DNA of 64,000 nucleotides from Actinomycetota bacterium (lineage in GTDB: Bacteria; Actinomycetota; Coriobacteriia; Anaerosomatales; UBA912): contig JAMDCK010000030.1 in NCBI GenBank assembly GCA_023488435.1, positions 20,177 to 84,176 of the forward strand, written 5' to 3'. The position numbers were made by a program, and so were the translations under genes. The notes under the pieces were generated by a model. That model saw only the letters and a program-made list of their open reading frames with translations, ran no database searches and was not told where the DNA came from. Position 1 is the stretch's first letter, and every line of letters starts with the position of its first letter. Below, piece after piece: positions 1 to 61,155 of this stretch.

Positions 1-854
1 CGCTTCAGTTTACGGAGGTAAATGACGTGCCGCTTGAACCAACTGCCCTTATGGCCAGCGACGTATATTGTCCTACCCTGAAAGAGGTACCAGCGGAGGC
101 AGAGATTGCTTCACATCGCCTCATGCTCAGAGCGGGCTTGATTAGAAAGACGGCATCAGGGATATATTCGTTTCTGCCTCTCGGATATCGCTCGTTGATG
201 AAGATCGAAGCCATTGTGCGGCAGGAGATGCATGCGGTTGGATCGCAAGAGGTGCTTCTTCCGATAGTCCAACCGTCCGAGCTGTGGCTTGAGTCGGGCC
301 GTTGGTCTGTGTACGGCCCCGAGCTTGCAAGGCTAACCGATCGTTCCGGCCGTGAGTACTGCCTTGGTCCCACACACGAGGAGATAATCACAGCACTGGT
401 TCGCAATGAGATTCGCAGCTATCGTCAACTGCCGGTCTCGCTGTTCCAAATCAACATGAAGTTCCGGGATGAAATCAGGCCCAGATTCGGACTGTTGCGC
501 GGCCGTGAGTTCATAATGAAGGACGCCTACTCCTTCCACGCAACACAGGATTCGCTGCAAGAGCACTACGATGCTCAGAAAATCGCATACGGCCGGATTT
601 GTGACCGCCTATCCTTGAGGTACCGGCCAGTTCAAGCTGAGTCAGGTCAGATCGGCGGCAGCGTGACCACTGAGTTCATGGCTTTGGCCGACTCCGGTGA
701 AGCTGAAATCGTCTATTGCTCCTGCGGTTATGCAGCCAACGTTGATGTAGCTGAAGTCAATATGATGGTCGGTCCTCAAGGGCCGGCGGTTCCTCTCGAG
801 AAGGTTGCAACTCCTGGCCTTAGAACCATCGCTGAACTTGCAGATGCCTTTGAC
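1..854. repeat. Direct-repeat copy A of the proS upstream/5' region (identical to 1502-2355)
   Basis: Read base by base, 1-854 equals 1502-2355 (offset 1501) with no mismatch seen. Identity stops at 855 (a) versus 2356 (c). Copy A starts at the window edge, so its true left end is unknown. Confidence 0.9.
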
Positions 855-1451: not shown

Positions 1452-1501
1452 ACGCCTTATTTTGCAGTTCCAAGCGGGCCGCCGTCGGTTCTGGCGCGGC
1501 T

Positions 1502-2355
1502 CGCTTCAGTTTACGGAGGTAAATGACGTGCCGCTTGAACCAACTGCCCTTATGGCCAGCGACGTATATTGTCCTACCCTGAAAGAGGTACCAGCGGAGG
1601 CAGAGATTGCTTCACATCGCCTCATGCTCAGAGCGGGCTTGATTAGAAAGACGGCATCAGGGATATATTCGTTTCTGCCTCTCGGATATCGCTCGTTGAT
1701 GAAGATCGAAGCCATTGTGCGGCAGGAGATGCATGCGGTTGGATCGCAAGAGGTGCTTCTTCCGATAGTCCAACCGTCCGAGCTGTGGCTTGAGTCGGGC
1801 CGTTGGTCTGTGTACGGCCCCGAGCTTGCAAGGCTAACCGATCGTTCCGGCCGTGAGTACTGCCTTGGTCCCACACACGAGGAGATAATCACAGCACTGG
1901 TTCGCAATGAGATTCGCAGCTATCGTCAACTGCCGGTCTCGCTGTTCCAAATCAACATGAAGTTCCGGGATGAAATCAGGCCCAGATTCGGACTGTTGCG
2001 CGGCCGTGAGTTCATAATGAAGGACGCCTACTCCTTCCACGCAACACAGGATTCGCTGCAAGAGCACTACGATGCTCAGAAAATCGCATACGGCCGGATT
2101 TGTGACCGCCTATCCTTGAGGTACCGGCCAGTTCAAGCTGAGTCAGGTCAGATCGGCGGCAGCGTGACCACTGAGTTCATGGCTTTGGCCGACTCCGGTG
2201 AAGCTGAAATCGTCTATTGCTCCTGCGGTTATGCAGCCAACGTTGATGTAGCTGAAGTCAATATGATGGTCGGTCCTCAAGGGCCGGCGGTTCCTCTCGA
2301 GAAGGTTGCAACTCCTGGCCTTAGAACCATCGCTGAACTTGCAGATGCCTTTGAC
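1502..2355. repeat. Direct-repeat copy B (native proS upstream/5' region)
   Basis: Identical to 1-854. It continues without interruption into full-length proS. Confidence 0.9.
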
Positions 2356-3273
2356 CTGCTTTCATCGCAGACGGTCAAGACCATGGCTGCCAAGACCGTT
2401 GACTCCACACTGGTCTACTTCCTTCTCCCGGGCGACCGCGAGCTCAACCAGGTCAAGGCCCAAGCTGCGGTCCCCGGCGTGACTCTGCTTGACGAGGAGG
2501 ACTTCAAGGCCTTCGGCATCCCGAAAGGTTCATTGGGCCCCGTGAACGCTCCATCGGGCACACTCCTCGTCGCGGACCGCTCGCTTCTTGAGCTCCTCAC
2601 CTGGACTGTCGGTGCCAACGAGGACGGCTACCACTACTTCGGCGCTTCCCGTGATCGTGATTTCGAGATCGACCTGTTCGCCGACCTCTTGATCGCTTCG
2701 GCTGGCGATCGCTGCCCAGTCTGCAAATCCCAGTCGCTTGAGGTGGCTCGCGGTATCGAGGTCTCACAGGTCTTTCAGCTTGGGACCAAGTACTCGGAGG
2801 CGATGGGGGCAACCTTCATGTCCGAGGAGGGCAGGGAGGAGCCTCTCCTCATGGGCTGCTACGGCGTCGGCATCACACGTTGTCTTGCTGCGGTCATCGA
2901 ACAACATCACGATGAAAAGGGTATTGCCTGGCCAATGGCGCTGGCACCAGTACACGTTGTGGTGCTACCCCTCATATCGGATCCTGCCGTCGCCGAGATG
3001 GCCTCCGACACATGGAAGGCGCTTGCTGAAAGCGGAGTCGAGACAATTCTGGATGATCGTGATGAAAGGGCTGGCGTCAAGTTCGCAGATGCCGACCTCA
3101 TCGGCTATCCGATGCAGATAGTATTCGGAAAGAAGACGCTGACAGAAGGACTGGTTGAGCTCAGGGACCGCAAGACTGGAGAATCGAGGGACATTCCCGC
3201 CGACGAAATCTGTCAGCTGGTCACCGAAATCGTCAGAAAGGCCATCCGGGACTCAAGCTCGGTACCCGGGTAG
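1528..3273 (+). CDS. proS: Prolyl-tRNA synthetase, bacterial type with editing insertion
   Basis: GTG at 1528 lies 8 nt after GGAGG (1515-1519). Class II motif 2 ([25 protein letters not shown]), motif 3 (GCYGVGITR), an internal editing insertion and a C-terminal anticodon-binding domain are present. The tracked start at 1462 (TTG) is probably an upstream over-extension. Confidence 0.95.
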   Translation: MPLEPTALMASDVYCPTLKEVPAEAEIASHRLMLRAGLIRKTASGIYSFLPLGYRSLMKIEAIVRQEMHAVGSQEVLLPIVQPSELWLESGRWSVYGPELARLTDRSGREYCLGPTHEEIITALVRNEIRSYRQLPVSLFQINMKFRDEIRPRFGLLRGREFIMKDAYSFHATQDSLQEHYDAQKIAYGRICDRLSLRYRPVQAESGQIGGSVTTEFMALADSGEAEIVYCSCGYAANVDVAEVNMMVGPQGPAVPLEKVATPGLRTIAELADAFDLLSSQTVKTMAAKTVDSTLVYFLLPGDRELNQVKAQAAVPGVTLLDEEDFKAFGIPKGSLGPVNAPSGTLLVADRSLLELLTWTVGANEDGYHYFGASRDRDFEIDLFADLLIASAGDRCPVCKSQSLEVARGIEVSQVFQLGTKYSEAMGATFMSEEGREEPLLMGCYGVGITRCLAAVIEQHHDEKGIAWPMALAPVHVVVLPLISDPAVAEMASDTWKALAESGVETILDDRDERAGVKFADADLIGYPMQIVFGKKTLTEGLVELRDRKTGESRDIPADEICQLVTEIVRKAIRDSSSVPG

Positions 3274-3284
3274 CCCGACGCCTC

Positions 3285-3340
3285 ACCACAAGGTCGACCA
3301 GGTCGAATCTTTGAGCATACGCCTGAGCTGACCTTGTGGT
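3285..3340 (+). terminator. Stem-loop downstream of proS (11-bp perfect stem, no U tract)
   Basis: ACCACAAGGTC (3285-3295) pairs with GACCTTGTGGT (3330-3340) across a 34-nt loop, starting 12 nt after the proS stop. Function as a terminator or regulator is not established. Confidence 0.3.
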
Positions 3341-10126: not shown

Positions 10127-11067
10127 GTACGGTGATGACATGGAGCCCAGAGATCGAGCATCTCGGTGACTGCGTACTCACTATCGGGGTTTTCGATGGC
10201 GTGCATCTTGGACACGTCAACCTGATTTCGGAGACAGTGCGTAGGGCTACGCTATCCGGGGTTCCCTCAGTCCTCATCACATTCGATCGAGACCCGGACA
10301 CCGTTGTAAATCCTGGCGTCGACACCGTTCAGCTTCTGTCCCTAGCCGAGAAGATCGACCGCTTGTCCCATACCGGAATCGAGCGGATCATCATCTTGCC
10401 CTTTGACGATCGTATGGCCGCCTACTCACCGAAGGACTTCTTGAGTCTGGTGGTACTTCAAGCGATGACCCCCCGGCACATCATCGTGGGGGAGGATTTC
10501 CGCTTCGGAAACAAGGCAACTGGCGACATCCGTCTTCTGACGGCGCTTGCGGCAAAATCGGGCATCGATGTTTTGGGGATACCTCTACTGGAGCTTGACG
10601 GCGCCCCGGTCAAGTCTACCCGAATCAAGCGTCATCTCGTCGATGGGGATGTGGAGCGCGCCAAGCGCCTCCTTGGACATCCGCATTCGCTATCCGGAAC
10701 CGTAATCCACGGTGCGGGTCGCGGAAGCCGATTGCTCTCAATCCCAACGATCAACATCAGCACCCAGGGTGCTAGCCTTCTGCCTGCTGCTGGCGTGTAC
10801 TCTGGGAAAGCTCACCTCGTCGACGGTGGTCATCCCGCGGCAATCTTCGTCGGTAGCTCACCATCATTCGCCGATTCAAGGTTCGGAGTCGAAGCTCACC
10901 TTCTCGGCTTTGCGAATGATGTCTATGCCCAAAAGGTCACGCTGACGTTCGAAACACGCATCCGTGATCTTCAGGAATTCGCCACTCCTGACGCACTTGC
11001 ATCGGCGATCATAGCCGATGTCGACATCGTCCGACGTCTGTCAGGAATGGAGCCGGAATCACCATGA
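10123..11067 (+). CDS. ribF: Bifunctional riboflavin kinase / FAD synthetase
   Basis: N-terminal adenylyltransferase motif GVFDGVHLGH and a C-terminal riboflavin kinase part (SGTVIHGAGRGSRL..PTINI). Confidence 0.93.
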   Translation: MSTVMTWSPEIEHLGDCVLTIGVFDGVHLGHVNLISETVRRATLSGVPSVLITFDRDPDTVVNPGVDTVQLLSLAEKIDRLSHTGIERIIILPFDDRMAAYSPKDFLSLVVLQAMTPRHIIVGEDFRFGNKATGDIRLLTALAAKSGIDVLGIPLLELDGAPVKSTRIKRHLVDGDVERAKRLLGHPHSLSGTVIHGAGRGSRLLSIPTINISTQGASLLPAAGVYSGKAHLVDGGHPAAIFVGSSPSFADSRFGVEAHLLGFANDVYAQKVTLTFETRIRDLQEFATPDALASAIIADVDIVRRLSGMEPESP

Positions 11068-11116
11068 TGGAATCTCCGGTCGTGTCTAGCTACGATGAGT
11101 CGTCAGCCCCTGATTG

Positions 11117-11125
11117 TGGTATTAT
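11117..11125 (+). promoter_or_regulatory. Candidate extended -10 element (TGgTATTAT) upstream of rpsO
   Basis: TGGTATTAT lies about 95 nt upstream of the rpsO ATG. No good -35 hexamer is present. This is sequence pattern only. Confidence 0.3.
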
Positions 11126-11220
11126 GTTTAGGTTGTATGGATACCCTGTCCTTCGATCATCGAATCACCAACGATTTTCATCGGAGAGGGCGAACCCCGT
11201 TAGAAAGGTGAAGATGTAAC

Positions 11221-11490
11221 ATGGCTTTGGATAAGGAAATCAAGTCGCAGATCGTGTCAGAGTACGCTAGGGGCGAAGCAGACACCGGGTCCCCAGAGGT
11301 TCAGGTCGCTTTGCTGACCAAGCGTATTCGTGATTTGACCGAGCACCTCAAGATCCACAAGACTGATCACCACACCCGCCGAGGGCTTCTGCGACTCGTC
11401 GGACAGAGGCGTAACCTGCTCGCATACCTGAAGAAATCCGATATTGAGCGTTACCGGGACCTTATTGCACGTCTAGGAATCCGCGGTTAG
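11221..11490 (+). CDS. rpsO: 30S ribosomal protein S15
   Basis: 89-aa ORF with the typical S15 sequence ([40 protein letters not shown]). Confidence 0.97.
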
Positions 11491-11534: not shown

Positions 11535-11834
11535 ACGGAACAGGAAGTGGAAATTGATGAGTAAGGTTGTCGAGACTTTTGAGCTGTTTGGCAAGGAGTA
11601 TACGTTCGAGACAGGCGAGCTGGCCAAGCAGGCTGGCGGAGCGGTGGTTGTGCGCCAGGGAGACACTATGGTCTTGGTGGCTGCCACAGCGTCGGCCCAA
11701 GCCAAGGATTTCGACTTCTTCCCACTGACGGTGGACTTTGAAGAGCGGATGTACGCTGCCGGGAAGTTGCCCGGCGGTTTCATCAAGCGTGAGGCCAGGC
11801 CTAGCGAAAAGGCGATTCTGACTGCACGGATGAT

Positions 11835-12570
11835 CGACCGTCCTCTGCGTTCAGCTTTCGCAGAAGGCTTCCGTAACGAGGTCCAGATCATTGCGACCGT
11901 GCTCTCGGCTGATCAGGTCCATCAGCCCGATGTGATTTGCATCATGGGAGCGTCGGCGGCTTTGATGGTTGCTGGGATCCCCTTCGACGGTCCGCTGTCC
12001 GGTGTCCGGGTCGCTAGGGTCGACGGCGAGCTGCTTGTCAACCCCACCTTCGAAGAGCTTGATCGCTCCGACCTCGACCTTGTGGTTGCCGGTTCCGCCG
12101 ATGCAATCTACATGATCGAAGCCGGAGCCAATGAGGTTACTGAGGACGACATGTTAGAAGCGTTGCGGTTCGCGCAGAACGCGATTGCGCAATTCTGTGA
12201 AGTCCAGAAAGATTTCGCTAGCCGCGTTGCATCCACCAAGATGGAAGTTGCTATCTACGAGATCGACGAAGCGCTCAGAAGTAGGGTCTTCTCCCTCGGC
12301 TATGACAAGATGAGCGAGGCGCTGCGTAACCCCGATAAGCATTCCAGAATGTCGGATGTGGCAACCGTCAAAGAGTTCGTCATCACTCAGTTCTCCGACG
12401 ATGAGATGGCCGCCTCGGGTAAAGACATCAAAGCTCTTCTCAAAGAACTCGAGAAGACGGCCATGAGGCGCATGGTCCTCGATGAGGGCGAGCGAGTTGA
12501 CGGTCGTCGATCCGATGAGGTTCGTGAGATTTCGAGTGTAGCCGGCTACCTCCCTCGCGCCCACGGATCG
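11835..12570. repeat. Tandem duplication unit 1 inside pnp
   Basis: Identical by eye to 12572-13307, with a period of 737 nt. Confidence 0.9.
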
Positions 12571-12571
12571 A

Positions 12572-13307
12572 CGACCGTCCTCTGCGTTCAGCTTTCGCAG
12601 AAGGCTTCCGTAACGAGGTCCAGATCATTGCGACCGTGCTCTCGGCTGATCAGGTCCATCAGCCCGATGTGATTTGCATCATGGGAGCGTCGGCGGCTTT
12701 GATGGTTGCTGGGATCCCCTTCGACGGTCCGCTGTCCGGTGTCCGGGTCGCTAGGGTCGACGGCGAGCTGCTTGTCAACCCCACCTTCGAAGAGCTTGAT
12801 CGCTCCGACCTCGACCTTGTGGTTGCCGGTTCCGCCGATGCAATCTACATGATCGAAGCCGGAGCCAATGAGGTTACTGAGGACGACATGTTAGAAGCGT
12901 TGCGGTTCGCGCAGAACGCGATTGCGCAATTCTGTGAAGTCCAGAAAGATTTCGCTAGCCGCGTTGCATCCACCAAGATGGAAGTTGCTATCTACGAGAT
13001 CGACGAAGCGCTCAGAAGTAGGGTCTTCTCCCTCGGCTATGACAAGATGAGCGAGGCGCTGCGTAACCCCGATAAGCATTCCAGAATGTCGGATGTGGCA
13101 ACCGTCAAAGAGTTCGTCATCACTCAGTTCTCCGACGATGAGATGGCCGCCTCGGGTAAAGACATCAAAGCTCTTCTCAAAGAACTCGAGAAGACGGCCA
13201 TGAGGCGCATGGTCCTCGATGAGGGCGAGCGAGTTGACGGTCGTCGATCCGATGAGGTTCGTGAGATTTCGAGTGTAGCCGGCTACCTCCCTCGCGCCCA
13301 CGGATCG
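12572..13307. repeat. Tandem duplication unit 2 inside pnp
   Basis: Identical by eye to 11835-12570. A single junction base (a) sits at 12571. The native downstream sequence resumes at 13308. Confidence 0.9.
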
Positions 13308-14497
13308 GGTCTCTTCACCCGCGGTCAGACTCAGGTACTTTCGGTTTTGACGCTCGGCATGCTGTCCGAATGGCAGCGCATCGACACCATCGATGTCACC
13401 GATGGCAAGCGCTACCTGCATCACTACAACTTCCCGCCGTTCTGTACTGGGGAAACCGGATTCATGCGCGGACCCAAGCGCCGAGAGATTGGGCACGGAG
13501 CGCTCGCGGAGAGGGCCCTCGTCCCCGTCCTTCCTGAAGAGGATGAGTTTCCCTACACGATTCGTATAGTCTCCGAAGTCTTGGAGTCCAACGGTTCGAG
13601 CTCCATGGGTTCGGTTTGTGGTTCGACACTAAGCCTCATGGATGCCGGCGTGCCTATCACTGCACCTGTCTCAGGAATTGCGATGGGGCTGATCAAAGAG
13701 GGCGACGAGGTTGCTGTACTTTCAGACATTCAGGGACTCGAGGACTTCCTCGGCGACATGGACTTCAAAGTAGCGGGTACCGAGAATGGGATCACCGCCC
13801 TCCAGATGGATAACAAGGCCAAAGGCTTGAGCCATGAGATCTTGGAGCAGGCCCTGCGTCAGGCAAAGACCGGTCGCGAGCATATCCTCTCCGAGATGAT
13901 GAAGGTCATCGACACCCCCCGCGAAGAACTCAAGGAGAACGCCCCGCGCATTATCACAGTCCGCATTCCTGTGGATCGTATTCGTGAGGTCATCGGGTCC
14001 GGAGGAAAAGTCGTTCGTTCAATCCAGGAAGAAACTGGTGCCCAGATCGACATCCAGGAGGACGGCACCATCTTCATTGCATCGAGGGATCAAGGTGGGG
14101 AAGAGGCTCGTCGCCGTATCGAGATGATTGTCAAGCAACCTGAGATCGGCGAAAAGTACACCGGACGAGTCGTCTCCATCCAGGCATTCGGCGCCTTTGT
14201 GGAGCTTATGCCTGGCAAAGATGGACTCCTTCACATCTCGAAGGTTGCCAAGGGTCGGGTCGAGAAGGTCGAGGACGTCCTCAGCGTTGGGGATGAGGTC
14301 GAGGTCGAGATCACCGACATCGACGATCGTGGCAAGGTATCCTTGGATCGTCTGGACAAGCCTGAGGCTCCAGCCGGCGCTCAGGGCGCTCCGCGCTCTT
14401 CCGAGCGGGATCCTCGCCCTCACGGTCGTGGTAGCGATGACCGCTCGTCAACGGATTCCAAGAGGCCTCGCAGAAGGCACTAACCATAATCGTATAC

Positions 14498-41110: not shown

Positions 41111-41144
41111 TCACATCTGTTCATTCCTCTAGGAGAGGGTTCCA

Positions 41145-41576
41145 CTGACCGAGGTTCACATAAAGCGCTTGGACAGCGAGGTTCCGCTTCCAGAGTACGC
41201 ATATCCAGGCGACGCAGGACTGGATCTCTCCTCCACGCATCGCGTCACCCTCATGCCGGGTGAGCGCCAGCTGATTTCGACCGGAATCTCAATAGCCTTG
41301 CCAATAGGCTATGCAGCATTTGTTCAGCCGCGGAGTGGCCTAGCCCTACGCTCAGGACTCGGGATAGTCAACTCTCCCGGCCTGATCGACTCTCAGTACC
41401 GAGGCGAGATCAAAGTCATTGCTATCAATTTTGACCAGCATGAACCTATTCACATCGAACGTGGTGACAGAATAGCCCAGCTGGTCATACAGCCCATAGC
41501 TTCGGTTCGGTTGGTCGAAGTTCTCGAACTTGACGCCACGGAAAGGGGAGAGGGAGGCTTTGGTAGTTCCAGCTGA
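41145..41576 (+). CDS. dut: dUTP diphosphatase (trimeric dUTPase)
   Basis: Contains AGLDL, PRSG, GLIDSQYRGEI and RGEGGFGSS motifs. The first canonical start (TTG at 41169) would delete strand beta-1. The in-frame CTG at 41145 lies 6 nt after AGGAGAGG and is the proposed start. Confidence 0.85.
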   Translation: MTEVHIKRLDSEVPLPEYAYPGDAGLDLSSTHRVTLMPGERQLISTGISIALPIGYAAFVQPRSGLALRSGLGIVNSPGLIDSQYRGEIKVIAINFDQHEPIHIERGDRIAQLVIQPIASVRLVEVLELDATERGEGGFGSSS

Positions 41577-42018
41577 ACGCAACCCCAGGATACGGGTAGC
41601 TGCTCTTATGATCTGGCGAGATGAAATCGTTCTTGTTCGCCACATGAAAGACCATCTTGAGTATCACCTGCTTCCCGGAGGGGGAGTGGACTGGGGAGAG
41701 ACTCTTCACCACGCACTGAAACGCGAAGTTCTTGAGGAAACTGGAATACTATGCAGCCCTCAGGATCTCTTATTTGTGCATGACAGTATAGATCCTGCGG
41801 GTCAGCGACATGTAGTGAACATATATTTTTCTGCCCATATCGATGACTTGCACTATGCAAAAACTTCCTTAGACCATCGAGTCGTTGGCATAGATTTCGT
41901 CAACCCTGACGATTTGACCCGCCTAGACCTTAGGCCCCCGATCGCACTTGACTTGATTGCATTCCTGCATGACGTCTCAGGTTTCAGGCCACGGTACACA
42001 GGTTCGGGCTACGCTTAG
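41530..42018 (+). CDS. NUDIX hydrolase
   Basis: Nudix box GGGVDWGETLHHALKREVLEETG. The start is uncertain because the ORF overlaps the end of dut; a TTG at 41560 is possible. Confidence 0.85.
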   Translation: MTPRKGEREALVVPAERNPRIRVAALMIWRDEIVLVRHMKDHLEYHLLPGGGVDWGETLHHALKREVLEETGILCSPQDLLFVHDSIDPAGQRHVVNIYFSAHIDDLHYAKTSLDHRVVGIDFVNPDDLTRLDLRPPIALDLIAFLHDVSGFRPRYTGSGYA

Positions 42019-42127
42019 GGAAAGGAGCGACGAGTAGACCATAGAGGTGCGTATTTTCGTGAGTGGTTTCGACCGACTCTGAGGAGCAATCAAAGAGTGG
42101 GTACATACCGACAAAGGGAAGGGAACA

Positions 42128-43456
42128 ATGGAGGCATTCTTTAGATTCAAAGAACGCAATACCGATCTACGAACGGAACTCATCGCTGGAGTGGTTACGT
42201 TCATGACGATGGCCTACATCATCTTTGTGAATCCTGGAATTCTATCCAGCATGTTTGGGGATGCAGCTGCGGAGTGGATTCCGGCACTGGCCACAGCAAC
42301 CACCGTTGGCGCAGCGTTGATGTGCCTGGCAATGGGGCTGCTTACCAATCGACCCCTGGCGCTAGCCTCGGGCATGGGCTTGAATGCAATGGTAGCGTTC
42401 AGCGTTGTTCTAGGTGCTGGAGTTCCATGGCAGGTCGGAATGGCAGTCGTGTTCGTCCAAGGATTGATCATACTGTTGTTGGTTCTGACCGGCTTTCGCG
42501 AGGCGGTGATGAATGCCATCCCTCTGAATCTGAAGCGCGCCATCGGCGGCGGTATCGGCATATTCATAACCTTCATTGGACTCAAAAATGGCGGCATTGT
42601 CGTCTCAAAGGAGGCCACCTTGGTCTCCCTGGGGGACTTCACCCAGGAAGCGGTTTGGGTGACCCTCGTAGGGCTTGTAGCAATCTTCGCATTCATGGCG
42701 CTGCGCATAAAGGGCGACATTTTATGGGGCATCCTCGTTGCGGCAGCTGCTTCGTTGGCACTCGGAGTTACTCAGTTACCCACTCAGATCGTAGCAGCTC
42801 CTGACTTTTCAACATTTGGCGCACCCTTCATGGAGGTAGACGGCCAGATGGCGTTGCTGCACGTTTTCACACCAGCTGTCATGGTGTTCGTCTTTTCTAT
42901 GATGCTAACTGACTTCTTCGACACTATGGGGACTGTGGTGGCGGTTGGCGAACAGGCCGGCTTCGTTGACGAAAAAGGACAGGTTCCAGAGATCCGGAAC
43001 ATTCTTGCCGTGGACTCCACCGCAGCAGTGGTAGGTGGCGCTGTCGGCGCCAGCTCTATCACCACATATATCGAGTCTGCGTCCGGCGTCGCCGAGGGCG
43101 GACGCACGGGCCTGACTGCCATCGTTGTAGGGTTACTTTTTGCTGTTGCTACCTTCTTCACACCCGTCATCGCAATGATTGGTGGGGCCGGCTCAGTAAC
43201 GGCGGGTGCTCTGATAATCGTTGGATTCCTTATGATGAAGACGATTGCCGACATATCCTGGAGCGATTTCGAAGAAGCGTTTCCAGCCTTTATGACAATT
43301 GTTGGTATTCCGCTCACTTTCAACATCGCTTGGGGAATCGGGCTTGGATTCATCAGCTTCATAATCATCAAAGTTCTGCACAGGAAAGCCGTCGAAGTGC
43401 ATCCGTTGATGTATTTGGCTGGAGTTGCCTTCGCTGTCGCCCTCGCTTTGTACTGA
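42128..43456 (+). CDS. NCS2/AzgA-family purine (adenine/guanine/hypoxanthine) permease
   Basis: 442-aa polytopic membrane protein with the typical N-terminus FKF.ERNT..RTE..AG.TTF.TM.YI..VNP. Confidence 0.88.
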   Translation: MEAFFRFKERNTDLRTELIAGVVTFMTMAYIIFVNPGILSSMFGDAAAEWIPALATATTVGAALMCLAMGLLTNRPLALASGMGLNAMVAFSVVLGAGVPWQVGMAVVFVQGLIILLLVLTGFREAVMNAIPLNLKRAIGGGIGIFITFIGLKNGGIVVSKEATLVSLGDFTQEAVWVTLVGLVAIFAFMALRIKGDILWGILVAAAASLALGVTQLPTQIVAAPDFSTFGAPFMEVDGQMALLHVFTPAVMVFVFSMMLTDFFDTMGTVVAVGEQAGFVDEKGQVPEIRNILAVDSTAAVVGGAVGASSITTYIESASGVAEGGRTGLTAIVVGLLFAVATFFTPVIAMIGGAGSVTAGALIIVGFLMMKTIADISWSDFEEAFPAFMTIVGIPLTFNIAWGIGLGFISFIIIKVLHRKAVEVHPLMYLAGVAFAVALALY

Positions 43457-51958: not shown

Positions 51959-52338
51959 GCCTCGCCGACGTGAACCGAGTACCGATCGGCGGGCATCAGT
52001 GATTCCATCTCCTCAGGATCGCTCATCTGGATCTTGACTATCCAACCCTCACCGTAAGGTTCCGAGTTAATGATCTCAGGTGTGTCTGGGAGAGTCGAGT
52101 TTACCTGGACAACCTGACCCGTGACAGGTGCATACAGCTCTGAGACCGACTTCACAGATTCAACCTCACCGTAGACTTGCCCGGCCGATATAGTGCTACC
52201 GACTTCGGGCAGTTCGACATAGACTATCTCCCCTAGCTGTCTCTGGGCGAAGTCGGTGATGCCGATGGTGGCAAGCCCGCCTTCTCCAATCTTCACCCAT
52301 TCATGCTCAGGATGGTAGCTTCGATCATCCGGATTCAT
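51955..52338 (-). CDS. gcvH: Glycine cleavage system protein H
   Basis: HEWV motif and the lipoyl-lysine motif EVESVKSVSELYAP. Confidence 0.96.
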   Translation of the reverse strand: MNPDDRSYHPEHEWVKIGEGGLATIGITDFAQRQLGEIVYVELPEVGSTISAGQVYGEVESVKSVSELYAPVTGQVVQVNSTLPDTPEIINSEPYGEGWIVKIQMSDPEEMESLMPADRYSVHVGEA

Positions 52339-54679
52339 CGTTCTCCTTTCGGCAATTATTCTGTCTTAAAGAAGTGTCGTGCACGAATGGTGGATCCACA
52401 ACGATCAGCGGAGCGTGCTTCCGTCTGACCTGCAGATCAAGCTTCTGCTCCGCGACGGCGTACTCGATGGGAATGTAGCCAGATGCGATCCCGATAGAAA
52501 GCGATGGGGAGAATGTCCCACTGGCTACACGCCCAATTTCAATACCCTTCACCGAGATGCTCATTCCCTGCCTTGGTATCCCTTCGGTGGACGTGAAGAA
52601 AGCAAGCACTCGTTCAATGCCTTGTTCGCGAATCCGCCGAATTGCCTCGCTACCAACAAAATCATGCTTCTTATCTGGACAAACCCATCCGAGACGGGCG
52701 GATATCGGATCCACTCCCCTATCCATGTCTGAACCATAAAGATGATAACCCATTTCAAGTCTGAGGGTGTCGCGAGACCCGAGGCCACAAGGGGTGATTT
52801 CTGAGAACGAAAGCAGGTATCGCCAGATAGCCACTGTATTGGACTCATGTGTGAATATCTCGACTCCGTCTTCGCCGGTGTATCCGGTTCGAGAGAGGAG
52901 GACTGGCATGTTACCGACGGTGGACGGCGCAATGCTGAATCGCGCAGGAAAAGTGGTGTCTTTGGGCGTCATATGCTCAAGTAGCCTCATGGCGAGCGGA
53001 CCCTGCAGAGCTATCAAACCAGTGCGATCGGTCTCATCGATGATATCAAGATCGATGCCGTGCTTGCGCGCGCCCTCTCCGGCGGACTCATTTAGGCTCC
53101 ACCTGTCGCGGATCGTGTTCGCCCAATCGAAGACGATGTACCGATTCACCGCATTGGCCACAAGGAGATATTCGTTATCGCCAGTCCGATACACGATGAC
53201 GTCATCGATGATTCCCGCATCGTGGTCGCATATCAATGTGTACTGAGCTATTCCGGGCACTGAGAGACGAGACAGATCGTTCGTCATAAGGTACTGCAGG
53301 AAATCGAAAGCGCTTGCTCCGCACACCCGAAGCTGTGCCATGTGACAAAGATCGAAGATACCGCAGCCCTCCCGAACAGCCGAATGCTCCTGCCGTATAC
53401 CCATGTACTGCATCGGCATCAGATAGCCGGCGAACTCGGTCATCTGCGCACCAAGTGCGATGTGTTCATCGTAGAGCGGTGTTTTTGAAACCTGTGTGGC
53501 CAAGGGAACTTGCCCTTCCTGTGGACGGAAGAAGCGCTGAATGGCGATCCAAACTCTTTCGAACACTCCTGGCTTTTCTACCGAAACCTGTGAAACAAGC
53601 GTGGTCTGATAGATTAATCTATCATCTTGTACCAACCTTAGCGTACCAAGGCGATCGCCAGCAGCCACGGGAGCCTCGATGTGGGCAACTAGCTCAACCT
53701 CAGCCGTGACCTGACCGTCTGGCGCGAATATGTAGTCCGAAAAAGCGGAGTTCGAAACGGCAGGAATAGTGAGGTCGAGATAGTCGGTGACTCGCACTGA
53801 GCCGAATTCCTGGCCACGGTCCACGAATCTCTGGTATGTGAGATTTTCAAATCCCCAATCCATGGCCTGCTGGGCGATCACAAACCTTGCCCTCTCGCTA
53901 GGAGTCCCAAGAATGACCGCAAAAAGCTCGAGTCCGTCCCGGCTAGCCGAAGAGATTAACGAAAAGCCTGCGCGCGAGGTCCAGCCAGTCTTCAAGCCTG
54001 TTGCCCCAAGGTATTCGCCTACGAGCAGGCTTGTATTCTCTTCAGGCGGCCTCGGGCCAGAGCCATCCGGATCAAAGAATTCCAATGCTGATATCCTTCT
54101 GATCTCATCGCTCTGCATCGCATACCGAGCGAGTATTGCTAGGTCGCGTGCGGTGGAGTAGTGCCCGGCCTGATCTATGCCATGAGGATTCGCAAAGCGA
54201 GTATCTGACATACCTAGCCGAAGAGCCCGATCGTTCATGATTGCAACGAACTCCTCCGGGGAGCCTGCGACGTGTCGTGCCAGAGCGTTAGCAACCTCAT
54301 TTCCGGAAACCAACAGGAGGGCTTCGAGGCACTCCCTGACGGTCATGATTTCGCCAGGGCGGAGGTTGGCATTCGATCCCCCCGTTGCGATATCGGCTGC
54401 TGATATCATCACGGAGTCGTCGAGATTTGCACGATCGAGGACTACGATTGCCGTCATTATCTTGGTAATGCTAGCAATGGATCGACTCTCATCCGCGCCC
54501 TTTGACCACAATTCGTGCCCATTTTCTGAGACGAGCAGCAGTGCTTCGTGTGGAGTGTCAATCGAAGGACCGCGCGAGCTAGAAGTTGCCGAAAGTGGGT
54601 CATCGGAGTTGACTGCATAGGCTGAAGCCGGAGATAGGGCTATTACAATCGAAAGGATAAACACTAGCGAGTTATTCAT
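52325..54679 (-). CDS. gcvT: Single ORF fusing an exported D-alanyl-D-alanine carboxypeptidase (S11/PBP5-like) to aminomethyltransferase GcvT
   Basis: N-terminal half: signal peptide MNNSLVFILSIVIALSPASAYA, SITK, SGN and KTG motifs, and a PBP5 C-domain. C-terminal half, from KTPLYDEHIALGAQMTEFAGYLMPMQY, is a complete GcvT. No stop separates the halves. An in-frame TTG at 53503 preceded by AGGAAGGG could start a stand-alone GcvT. Confidence 0.8.
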   Translation of the reverse strand: MNNSLVFILSIVIALSPASAYAVNSDDPLSATSSSRGPSIDTPHEALLLVSENGHELWSKGADESRSIASITKIMTAIVVLDRANLDDSVMISAADIATGGSNANLRPGEIMTVRECLEALLLVSGNEVANALARHVAGSPEEFVAIMNDRALRLGMSDTRFANPHGIDQAGHYSTARDLAILARYAMQSDEIRRISALEFFDPDGSGPRPPEENTSLLVGEYLGATGLKTGWTSRAGFSLISSASRDGLELFAVILGTPSERARFVIAQQAMDWGFENLTYQRFVDRGQEFGSVRVTDYLDLTIPAVSNSAFSDYIFAPDGQVTAEVELVAHIEAPVAAGDRLGTLRLVQDDRLIYQTTLVSQVSVEKPGVFERVWIAIQRFFRPQEGQVPLATQVSKTPLYDEHIALGAQMTEFAGYLMPMQYMGIRQEHSAVREGCGIFDLCHMAQLRVCGASAFDFLQYLMTNDLSRLSVPGIAQYTLICDHDAGIIDDVIVYRTGDNEYLLVANAVNRYIVFDWANTIRDRWSLNESAGEGARKHGIDLDIIDETDRTGLIALQGPLAMRLLEHMTPKDTTFPARFSIAPSTVGNMPVLLSRTGYTGEDGVEIFTHESNTVAIWRYLLSFSEITPCGLGSRDTLRLEMGYHLYGSDMDRGVDPISARLGWVCPDKKHDFVGSEAIRRIREQGIERVLAFFTSTEGIPRQGMSISVKGIEIGRVASGTFSPSLSIGIASGYIPIEYAVAEQKLDLQVRRKHAPLIVVDPPFVHDTSLRQNNCRKENDESG

Positions 54680-54773
54680 TATGTCGGATATACTTATGCC
54701 ATGGGTACTGATTTTGATCACGGGTCGATCCATTTCGACGAGGGAAACTCATGACGCACTCGGTCAGCGAACA

Positions 54774-57874: not shown

Positions 57875-60376
57875 TCAAATACTAGCCTCGACCATCTGCG
57901 TCCACTTGTCGGTCAAGGTCTTGAGTCTGTCTATTGTATCAGCTTCTGCAAAAATTGAAATATGCGGCTCTGATGAGTGAGGCAGGACCAGTATCCATCC
58001 GTCATCGTATTCGACTTGAATCCCCTCAGTGATGTCAGCAGTCGGGACTCCTGTTTCCTCCGTGAGGGAACGCATGACCTTGCCCTTGCTAGTCGACGGG
58101 CAGAATATGTCGGTCTGCTCGGCGAAGTATGGCGGGAGTTGTGCGACTATCTCGTCAAGGGTGCGTTCATCCTTGGCTAGCAGCGCACAGATTCCAACTA
58201 GGCTTGCGACGCCATCGTAGCCCGCAAGGAAGCTGGGGAAGATGTAACCGCCGGTACGACCCCCTGCGAATGAGACACTGTTATTGGCAGCTAGTTGGGC
58301 GAGGGACCTGCGAGAGCGACCGGGTCGGATCACGGAGTGCCCAGTGATTGCCGCAATCTTCTCAGCTACACGTGAGACTGTGGATGGTACTGCGACTGGA
58401 AGTCCAGACTCGTCGTACTTACACCACAGGTCGACCAAGGCAAACAACGATGTCGCCCCGTCCAAAGTTTTTCCGCTGGGTGTCAGTAGAGTCAGGCGCT
58501 CGCCTGAGGTATCGAAGGCGACACCCAGATCAGCCCCCAAGAACTGGACCAGTCTGGATAGTTCGCCGAACTCTTCGCTCTGGTCAGTGCCGATGAAGGT
58601 CCTCTCCGCATCAAGGAAGGGATTGATGCTGACCAGATCAATTCCTGAGTGGACGAATACTTGGGGCAGTACGAAAGAAGCTACCCCGCCGGCCAGATCG
58701 GCCACAACCTTGAAAGATGTGTCATCGGTGTTAATCGAGTGAGCGAAGGTCTCTAGGGCGCTCGAATAGTATTCGATCGTCCTGGGAGGGAAAGTCACGT
58801 CGCCAACATCGGAGAAGAAAGTGCGACGGAACTCACCTCTATGGTAGAGTCGCTCGATCTTCTTCTCCTCCCACGCTGCGATATCCAACCCGAGACGATC
58901 GAATATGTGAATCTCAATAGCCTGAACATCTGTCGCCGACTGACAGACATGGACTCCTCCGAGGCAACGAGTGTCTCGGGTGGTCAGACGATTCATCGCC
59001 GGAGAACAGACGCGCAGGTCCCGCACATGGCATCCTGCCGAATTCAAACCGGCAATCATGGCCCTCTTGATCATTCGAGATGAACGCGAAGAATCACGAC
59101 TGACCATGACATGTGAGCCCTTGGGAAGGAGCGATCCGTAGGCTTGCGCAATGCGCAGAGCCATTTCGGGGGACAAATCCACTCCGACGATTCCTGATAT
59201 CCCGCGCTCGCCGAACAGGGTTCTGGCACCAGTAGCCTCCCAGATGATCGAGCTACTGGCCACAGCACCTGGCTCGACGGTCTTGTATGGGTAGACCTGA
59301 ACGTCAGTGTTGATGTGAGCCCTGTGGCCAACGGTCACTTCATCGCCGAGAACGGCCCCACTGGCTACCGATGCCCCTCCACGAATATCGACACCTCTGC
59401 ACAAGACGGATCCCTGAACGTCAGAGTTCCTGCCAATGAAAGTATCGCTCCAAATTACCGAATGGGTGACCTTAGCATCTGTCCCAATGACGCAGTTGTC
59501 ACCCAAGACGGTGAAGTCACCAATGACGGCGCCTGATCGAATAGTAACGTTCTTTCCGACTACGACATGCTCGCCAAGTACGGCGTCGGCATCGATGCGG
59601 GCGCCTTCTCCTATCCACAACCCGTCACGGACGGAAATCCCCGGGATATAGAGATTAGCCTTACCCGACATGAGGTCCCGATGTGCCTGGACGTAGCTTT
59701 CCAAGCTACCAACATCGCACCAATAGCCCTTTGAGTGGAATCCATAGAGGCCGTAGCCCTTCTCCATGAGAAGCGGAAACAGCTGGCTGGAAAAGTCGAA
59801 GGCCTCACCCTGAGGAATGAAGTCAAAGACCTCAGGTTCCATGACATAGATGCCTGTGTTGATGGTGTCCGAGAATACCTGCCCCCAGGTTGGCTTCTCC
59901 AGGAAGCGTTCGATCCTTCCGTCGGCGTCGGTGATCACCACTCCAAAATCCAGAGGATCCGGCACGCTTTTAAGCGCTATGGTCACGGTCGCCCGCTTTT
60001 TGCGATGGAACTCGATAACTGATGTAAGGTCGATGTCGGTAAGAGCATCGCCGGAAATCACCAAGAAGGTGCCATCTCTTAGCAGATGCTCGGCGTTCTT
60101 TACAGAGCCCGCGGTTCCAAGAGGGGTTTCTTCGACTGCATAACTGAGGTTCATGCCCCACTCCTCGCCATTGCCGAAGTAGTCTTCGATGAAGCGAGGC
60201 ATGAATGCCAGCGTTGCGACAGCGTCGGTAATGTCATGGTGCTTGAGCAGGCCGATTATGTGCTCCATGATCGGTTGATTGACGATCGGGACCATCGGTT
60301 TTGGCCGCAAACTAGTAAGTGGTCGTAATCTCGAGCCTTCTCCGCCTGCCATGACAACGGCTTTCAATTGCCCCAC
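57875..60376 (-). CDS. Sugar-phosphate nucleotidyltransferase (mannose-1-phosphate guanylyltransferase-like) with a left-handed beta-helix, fused to a divergent phosphohexomutase-like domain
   Basis: N-terminus [23 protein letters not shown], hexapeptide repeats around residues 250-370, and a four-domain PGM/PMM-like C-terminal half with altered catalytic loops. Confidence 0.8.

Positions 60377-61078: not shown

Positions 61079-61155
<77 letters not shown>

Follow-up and report, generated by a model that had tools for sequence, protein, structure and literature searches.

In the window, which is the whole 64,000-nt stretch of Actinomycetota DNA that was analysed, the pnp gene encoding PNPase is divided into two overlapping open reading frames by a perfect tandem duplication. 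This raises the question of whether the organism has lost an intact pnp, turns the gene on and off through the repeat, or has an intact gene that was written out incorrectly in one assembly. The split pnp with its 737-base duplication is present in only one deposited contig, that of a metagenome-assembled genome (MAG) from an uncultured Actinomycetota, and it most likely reflects either rare junction reads that the assembler followed or a short-lived mutation, and not a genetic switch. The anatomy of the duplications, their privacy to one assembly, the non-random microhomology at their junctions, and the selection acting on pnp were established directly.

Structure of the repeat within pnp

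Comparison of the window with itself at an offset of 737 nt showed unbroken identity from 11835 to 12570 (736 nt, no differences), with mismatches on both sides. The first copy of the unit (11835-12570, + strand) comprises 736 nt and covers pnp codons 93-338, and the second copy (12572-13307, + strand) is 100% identical to it. The A at 12571 lies outside both copies, the offset of 737 being the sum of the 736-nt unit and this 1 nt. The repeat is direct and head-to-tail, with a spacer limited to a few junction bases. The preliminary description of this locus had given a period of 737, the same two copies and the extra A at 12571, and the offset comparison reproduced all of its coordinates. It had also placed the heptamer CACGGAT on the + strand at the left breakpoint (11825-11831) and again at 12562-12568 and 13299-13305, where it was found with a spacing of exactly 737 nt.

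A 25-mer self-comparison of the full 64 kb detected two repeats only, the one in pnp and a second, in which positions 1-854 recur at 1502-2355 with an offset of 1501. The same comparison found no reverse-complement 25-mers shared within the 64-kb window, and hence no inverted repeat. Tandem Repeats Finder reported nothing, because the longest period that it was allowed (500) is shorter than the period of the repeat. A scan of the whole window against Rfam at the gathering threshold returned a single tRNA (61082-61155, - strand), and therefore no RNA element is involved in the duplication.

Several origins were considered and rejected. Chance repetition was dismissed on the size of the repeat, as 64 kb of sequence cannot give one so long by chance. 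An old paralogous duplication was rejected because the copies show no divergence and relatives lack the second copy, and duplication mediated by an insertion sequence (IS) or a long repeat was rejected because the breakpoints show just 4-7 nt of microhomology.

Coding consequences and selection on pnp

The 5' fragment of pnp (11557-12672, + strand) encodes 371 aa from an ATG, consisting of 338 native codons followed by a 33-aa frameshifted tail; the same frame read from a TTG spans 11554-12672 and encodes 372 aa. The 3' fragment (12636-14483, + strand) encodes 615 aa, corresponding to native codons 115-729, and no Shine-Dalgarno-like sequence was found ahead of its start. Pfam domains in the first frame were RNase_PH, RNase_PH_C and the PNPase alpha domain, while those in the second were RNase_PH_C, PNPase, RNase_PH, KH and S1. 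The possibility that the two products form a functional split PNPase was rejected, as the second is missing the initial 114 residues of the first RNase PH domain and its frame has no Shine-Dalgarno-like sequence. The ORF list agreed with the frameshift and the two overlapping frames noted in the preliminary description, and its claim that deletion of one unit restores pnp also held: removal of either unit yielded one pnp frame of 730 codons from the TTG, or 729 aa from the ATG. The arrangement that defines a PNPase (two RNase PH domains, the PNPase alpha-helical domain, KH and S1, in about 700 aa) was present only after this collapse to one unit, and the collapsed 729-aa product is identical to MCL4554060.1, the polyribonucleotide nucleotidyltransferase of a sister MAG.

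The genomic context of pnp is canonical (rpsO-pnp-M16 peptidase-dapB). The rpsO gene (11221-11490) lies directly upstream of pnp, and the gene order was kept in nine related loci. The gap between ribF and rpsO contains a 51-aa open reading frame (11067-11221) that overlaps the ribF stop; it was called in several Logan assemblies, though not by NCBI, and has no Pfam match on record.

Alignment of the collapsed pnp with that of a relative of 80% identity gave 95% amino-acid identity, a dS of 1.22, a dN of 0.028, and a dN/dS of 0.023, and the gene is held under strong purifying selection in this lineage. Many bacteria can do without pnp. RNase J and RNase Y are also encoded in the same genome, so pnp may be dispensable here. 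In the actinobacterium M. tuberculosis, PNPase (GpsI) is essential (PMC12203904).

The duplication at proS

The second duplication is exact over at least 854 nt. Positions 1-854 (+ strand) are the tail of its first copy and contain the 5' part of proS; this copy begins 647 nt to the left of the window. The second copy is a complete 1501-nt unit (855-2355, + strand) with no mismatches to positions 9794-11294 of L010, the native reference contig for this region. The unit contains the last 135 nt of ispG, a gene for a 129-aa Gfo/Idh/MocA-like protein (1062-1451 in the second copy, + strand), and the first 828 nt of proS. Its junction, between 854 and 855, is clean, with a unit length equal to the offset of 1501.

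At this junction the 5' part of proS runs in frame into the tail of ispG, producing a chimeric proS'-'ispG frame (27-989, + strand) that ends at the ispG stop. Because each of the flanking genes holds one breakpoint only, ispG remains intact in the first copy and proS in the second. The intact proS (1528-3273, + strand) encodes 581 aa in most assemblies, and the PGAP call is 573 aa (MCL5887564.1). The proS frame 1462-3273 encodes a complete ProRS, and the start used in relatives corresponds to 1528. The preliminary description had noted a second perfect duplication at proS, and this duplication is real and complete; it does not disrupt the gene, as one intact proS is present at 1528-3273. The two duplications are about 10 kb apart, and both fall within 13 kb.

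A separate difference was seen near proS in L012 (12250-19317; ENA ERZ22146367, contig _1163), whose identity to the window ends just past proS (window position 3310). Beyond this point, in place of rimP-nusA, the contig carries a gene for a UPF0236-family transposase, one with faint matches to multihaem cytochrome domains, and one encoding 1152 aa. This divergence reflects IS-associated variation of the strain or else a chimeric contig.

Independent assemblies of the same organism

Twenty-five loci were fetched through look-ups of rpsO, the 129-aa protein, RNase Y, and an 802-aa protein. They came from NCBI MAGs (GCA_023382015.1, GCA_027358295.1, and GCA_002293965.1), from Logan assemblies of SRA runs (SRR22746111, SRR22746112, SRR22746123, SRR22746131, SRR22746134, SRR10267473, SRR13221995, SRR29383103, DRR851277, and DRR851289), from ENA assemblies (ERZ22146367 and ERZ27237461), and from JGI metagenomes. 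By BLAST, the window was colinear over positions 1-61105 with contigs from at least 14 other samples, at identities of 99.94-100%, positions 41136-42324 lying outside the fetched loci. Several contigs had no mismatches to the window over 10-21 kb. The sole structural differences between the window and the near-identical contigs were the two duplications.

All seven of the near-identical contigs that cross pnp contained a single 729-aa pnp, as did the 80%-identical relative (L001), and the pnp duplication junction was found in none of those seven. The proS region was colinear and single-copy in 15 of the 15 loci that cross proS (including L002-L004, L007, and L019), and the proS junction string was absent from the ten proS-crossing loci that were searched for it (including L011-L019). 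Several Logan contigs pass straight through all four breakpoints; a graph branch of appreciable coverage at these points would have prevented such contigs from being assembled. The junction 33-mers had no match in the genome_contigs and metagenome_contigs collections, but a native pnp control 23-mer and 38-mer were unmatched as well, so these scans carry no weight on recurrence and are not to be read as absence of the junctions.

The fetched loci also indicate that the organism is remarkably clonal: different submitters (SRR, DRR, ERZ, JGI, and GenBank) contributed at least 14 runs or assemblies whose contigs are 99.94-100% identical over tens of kb. This pattern suggests an enrichment or reactor strain that is widely shared. 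L001 and L009 represent a more distant relative, of only about 80% identity.

Protein records gave the same picture. An exact look-up with the intact 729-aa product in a collection of 15 billion proteins returned three sequences in the PNPase cluster: two full-length forms, found on 12 and 2 contigs, and the truncated 371-aa product, which had a single occurrence, in the NCBI MAG only. The truncated product is MCL5887574.1, annotated as 'MAG: hypothetical protein M1617_04625 [Actinobacteria bacterium]' on a 108,600-nt contig, and its sequence equals that of the window frame 11557-12672, frameshifted tail included. The order of accessions in the source MAG is dxr (MCL5887559), rseP (560), ispG (561), the 129-aa Gfo/Idh/MocA-like protein (562 and again 563), proS (564, 573 aa), rimP (565), nusA (566), ylxR (567), ribF (572), the 5' fragment of pnp (574), the M16 peptidase (575), and dapB (576). 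As the 129-aa protein appears twice (MCL5887562 and MCL5887563), its first copy lies just to the left of the window, and the event at proS is a complete tandem duplication. The source record has no protein accession for the proS'-'ispG chimera (27-989) or for the 3' frame of pnp (12636-14483).

Two fused proteins are encoded elsewhere in the window, both on the - strand. One (52325-54733) is an 802-aa protein in which a D-Ala-D-Ala carboxypeptidase (Peptidase_S11 and PBP5_C, residues ~62-386) is joined to a complete glycine-cleavage T protein (GCV_T and GCV_T_C, residues 419-783), an unusual combination of domains. Its gene directly adjoins gcvH and two gcvP subunit genes, and since the frame is also found in Logan contig L020, it is not an artefact of the source MAG. 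In the other, likewise a large protein (57875-60376), a sugar-nucleotidyltransferase with a left-handed beta-helix module is joined to a full phosphoglucomutase/phosphomannomutase module; this protein is 806 aa as called in L020, and the longest corresponding frame in the window encodes 832-833 aa.

Sequence at the junctions

At the pnp junction, the left parental sequence is CACGGAT GAT CGACCG, the right parental sequence is CACGGAT CGG GTCTCT, and the junction itself is CACGGAT CGA CGACCG. The crossover lies 2-3 nt past CACGGAT. In the imperfect junction triplet CGA (12569-12571, + strand), CG belongs to the right-hand context, and the A at 12571 matches neither parent. An equally economical description of this junction is a 5-nt microhomology, GATCG (11832-11836 and 12566-12570), combined with a stutter of the CGA triplet. 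At the proS side, the parental contexts are GAGGCTGAC followed by ATTGGC and CCTTTGAC followed by CTGCTT, which have the 4 nt TGAC in common. The junction-spanning strings of the duplicated contig at the pnp and proS sides are CCCACGGATCGACGACCGTCC, GCCTTTGACATTGGCATAG, and GCCTTTGACATTGGCATAGCGG.

The microhomology expected by chance was estimated from 200,000 random duplications simulated in the collapsed sequence. Clean microhomology of at least 4 nt, as in the TGAC case, occurred in 1.7% of the simulated duplications (p ~0.017), and a match of 7 nt or more lying no further than 14 nt from the junction, as in the CACGGAT case, occurred in 0.27% (p ~0.003); the joint chance probability for both junctions is ~5e-5. 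Judged from their sequence, both junctions point to backward switching of a polymerase between templates at short complementarity, and not to a blind computational join. Microhomology beyond chance implies that real junction molecules existed, as opposed to a random computational join. The template switch could have taken place in cells, by slippage or by an MMBIR-like restart, or in vitro; an MMBIR-like restart would also account for the occurrence of two clustered events.

Origin of the duplications

The explanation that we consider probable is that the assembler took a path that does not represent the genome, through junction reads that were chimeric or in the minority. Both duplications would have arisen very recently, head to tail, when a polymerase switched templates at short microhomologies, and the novel junctions would have been carried by what was presumably a minority of the molecules in one sample, either rare slippage variants formed in vivo or library chimeras. 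Each junction would have closed a cycle in the assembly graph, and the assembler may have threaded each cycle once, with the result that the unit was written twice. Copies produced by traversing such a cycle are identical by construction, whatever the frequency of the junction. The dominant genome would have an intact pnp, the organism's own gene being a single 729-aa one under strong purifying selection, and the split PNPase would be a consequence of annotation. The preliminary description had left the choice between real slippage and a loop in the assembly graph open, and the comparison with other assemblies shifts the balance. The loop is kept here as the route, with the refinement that microhomology of 7 nt alone cannot make a graph cycle, and junction-bearing reads must therefore have existed.

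MAG assembly is known to produce local errors such as a wrong number of repeat copies or identical sequence artificially joined end to end (Chen et al. 2020, PMC7111523), and the present contig likewise contains an identical repeat where independent assemblies of the same genome are single-copy. A state that is not fixed is also indicated by the presence of two structural changes within 13 kb alongside no substitutions relative to the nearest contigs over 11-21 kb, which would be unexpected in a lineage that had had time to fix two independent events. Against an assembly path through minority reads, the microhomology and the 3-nt imperfection are equally expected of a real template switch in vivo. 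It is uncommon for random library chimeras to recur at the level needed to persist through graph cleaning, and this speaks for a genuine variant of appreciable frequency. In addition, the proS-side duplication is harmless and pnp is often dispensable, so a clone with both duplications would in principle be viable.

These points lead to the possible, if doubtful, alternative that both duplications are real and were present in most cells of one sample, having been produced by a polymerase that twice switched templates backwards, by 1501 nt and by 737 nt. The switches may have belonged to one MMBIR/FoSTeS-like replication-restart event (DUP-normal-DUP) or to two slippage events. The pnp gene would be knocked out, but only transiently, with RecA-mediated collapse between the 736-nt perfect repeats restoring it precisely. 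Junction microhomology and a small insertion are hallmarks of replicative template switching, and the contig has both, in its non-random microhomologies and in the small non-templated or stuttered insertion at one junction. The direct orientation and clustering of the two events would fit such an origin, as would the survival of every gene after the proS-side event, the availability of RNase J and RNase Y as alternative RNA-decay enzymes, and the assembler's requirement for junction reads in sufficient number. What argues against real duplications in most cells is that the junctions are missing from every other sample of the same strain and the truncated product is known from one assembly only, that pnp has a dN/dS of only 0.023, that PNPase is essential in mycobacteria, and that two structural changes would have to be reconciled with zero point differences from sister contigs. 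The more specific proposal of a real clonal DUP-normal-DUP, generated by one replication-restart event in a natural near-clonal Actinomycetota population and leaving PNPase knocked out in a precisely revertible way, is unlikely. If true, it would represent a naturally occurring, reversible pnp null and an MMBIR-like complex rearrangement in bacteria in the wild.

It is highly improbable, by comparison, that the repeats serve as a programmed or selected ON/OFF switch of PNPase through phase variation, with an intragenic tandem duplication that is gained and then precisely lost. Repeats of 736 nt would by themselves allow precise reversion by homologous recombination, and comparable switches are known elsewhere: reversible inactivation by intragenic tandem duplication is attributed to cap3A of S. 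pneumoniae (Waite 2001, as cited in PMC11163986), and phase variation of the same kind to phcA of Ralstonia solanacearum (Poussier et al. 2003, as described in a citing paper). However, pnp is unduplicated in all the other samples and assemblies of the strain and in its 80%-identical relative, the gene has no hotspot feature, and the presence of a functionally unrelated duplication 10 kb away suggests a generic rather than a pnp-specific cause. The recurrence and coexistence of both states that characterize cap3A were not seen, with no duplication in the seven other pnp contigs and no second allele in other samples. The reversible on/off switch raised in the preliminary description thus finds no support in recurrence, in a second allele elsewhere, or in dedicated features.

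A purely technical join that corresponds to nothing in cells is also quite improbable, if less so than a switch; it might be a chimera from whole-genome amplification (MDA), or overlapping contig ends might have been duplicated by mistake during scaffolding, gap closing or polishing. MDA chimeras use 2-21 nt of complementarity and join nearby segments (PMC1855051), errors in which an overlap is written on both sides of a scaffolding gap are known (PMC7111523), and the filling of a 1-nt gap could explain the stray A at 12571. However, inverted joins account for 85% of MDA chimeras, and just 11 of 475 were both direct and under 10 kb (PMC1855051); here both events are direct, the 64 kb contain no inverted repeat, and the inversion with intervening deletion that typifies MDA chimeras was not observed. 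Contig-end overlaps of 736 and 1501 nt would far exceed any k-mer overlap, and blind end-to-end joining would not give microhomology at both junctions.

Implications for the public record

The chief value of these results concerns data quality, as a public MAG carries two local duplications (MCL5887562-MCL5887576, around M1617_04625). Their effect on the record is that PNPase has become a 'hypothetical protein' and an unannotated remnant, that an extra 129-aa gene is present, and that a chimeric proS'-'ispG frame has been created. Pangenome, essentiality or pseudogene analyses based on the source record would be misled, and the sister assemblies show the correct single-copy structure. Were the duplications real, they would amount only to a loss-of-function mutation, transient and of a mechanistic type already known, of modest interest for the dispensability of PNPase in Actinomycetota.

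Relation to known systems

Compared with PNPase as known from other organisms (GpsI in actinobacteria), the collapsed gene has the full series of RNase PH, RNase PH_C, PNPase alpha, RNase PH, KH, and S1 domains, whereas in the source record the gene is broken into frames of 371 and 615 aa. The locus resembles cap3A and phcA in having an out-of-frame, perfect tandem duplication within a coding region, from which precise reversion is possible. Those systems involve recurrent and diverse duplications, ON and OFF cells occurring together, and a selectable phenotype, while the pnp case is a single one, in one assembly, in a housekeeping gene for RNA decay, and with an unrelated duplication nearby.

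Mechanistically, the sequences of both events would fit ordinary microhomology-mediated tandem duplication. As in the DUP-normal-DUP products of FoSTeS/MMBIR, the units are direct and 0.7-1.5 kb long, the microhomologies are 4-7 nt, one junction has an imperfection of 1-3 nt, no IS or long repeat is present at the breakpoints, and the events lie within about 12 kb; unlike duplications of that type, these are known from one metagenome-assembled contig alone. Like the local assembly errors described in MAGs, the pnp duplication consists of hundreds of identical bases written twice, breaks an otherwise conserved gene, and is absent from sister assemblies; both duplications differ from such errors in their non-random junction microhomology, and so probably originated in real molecules.
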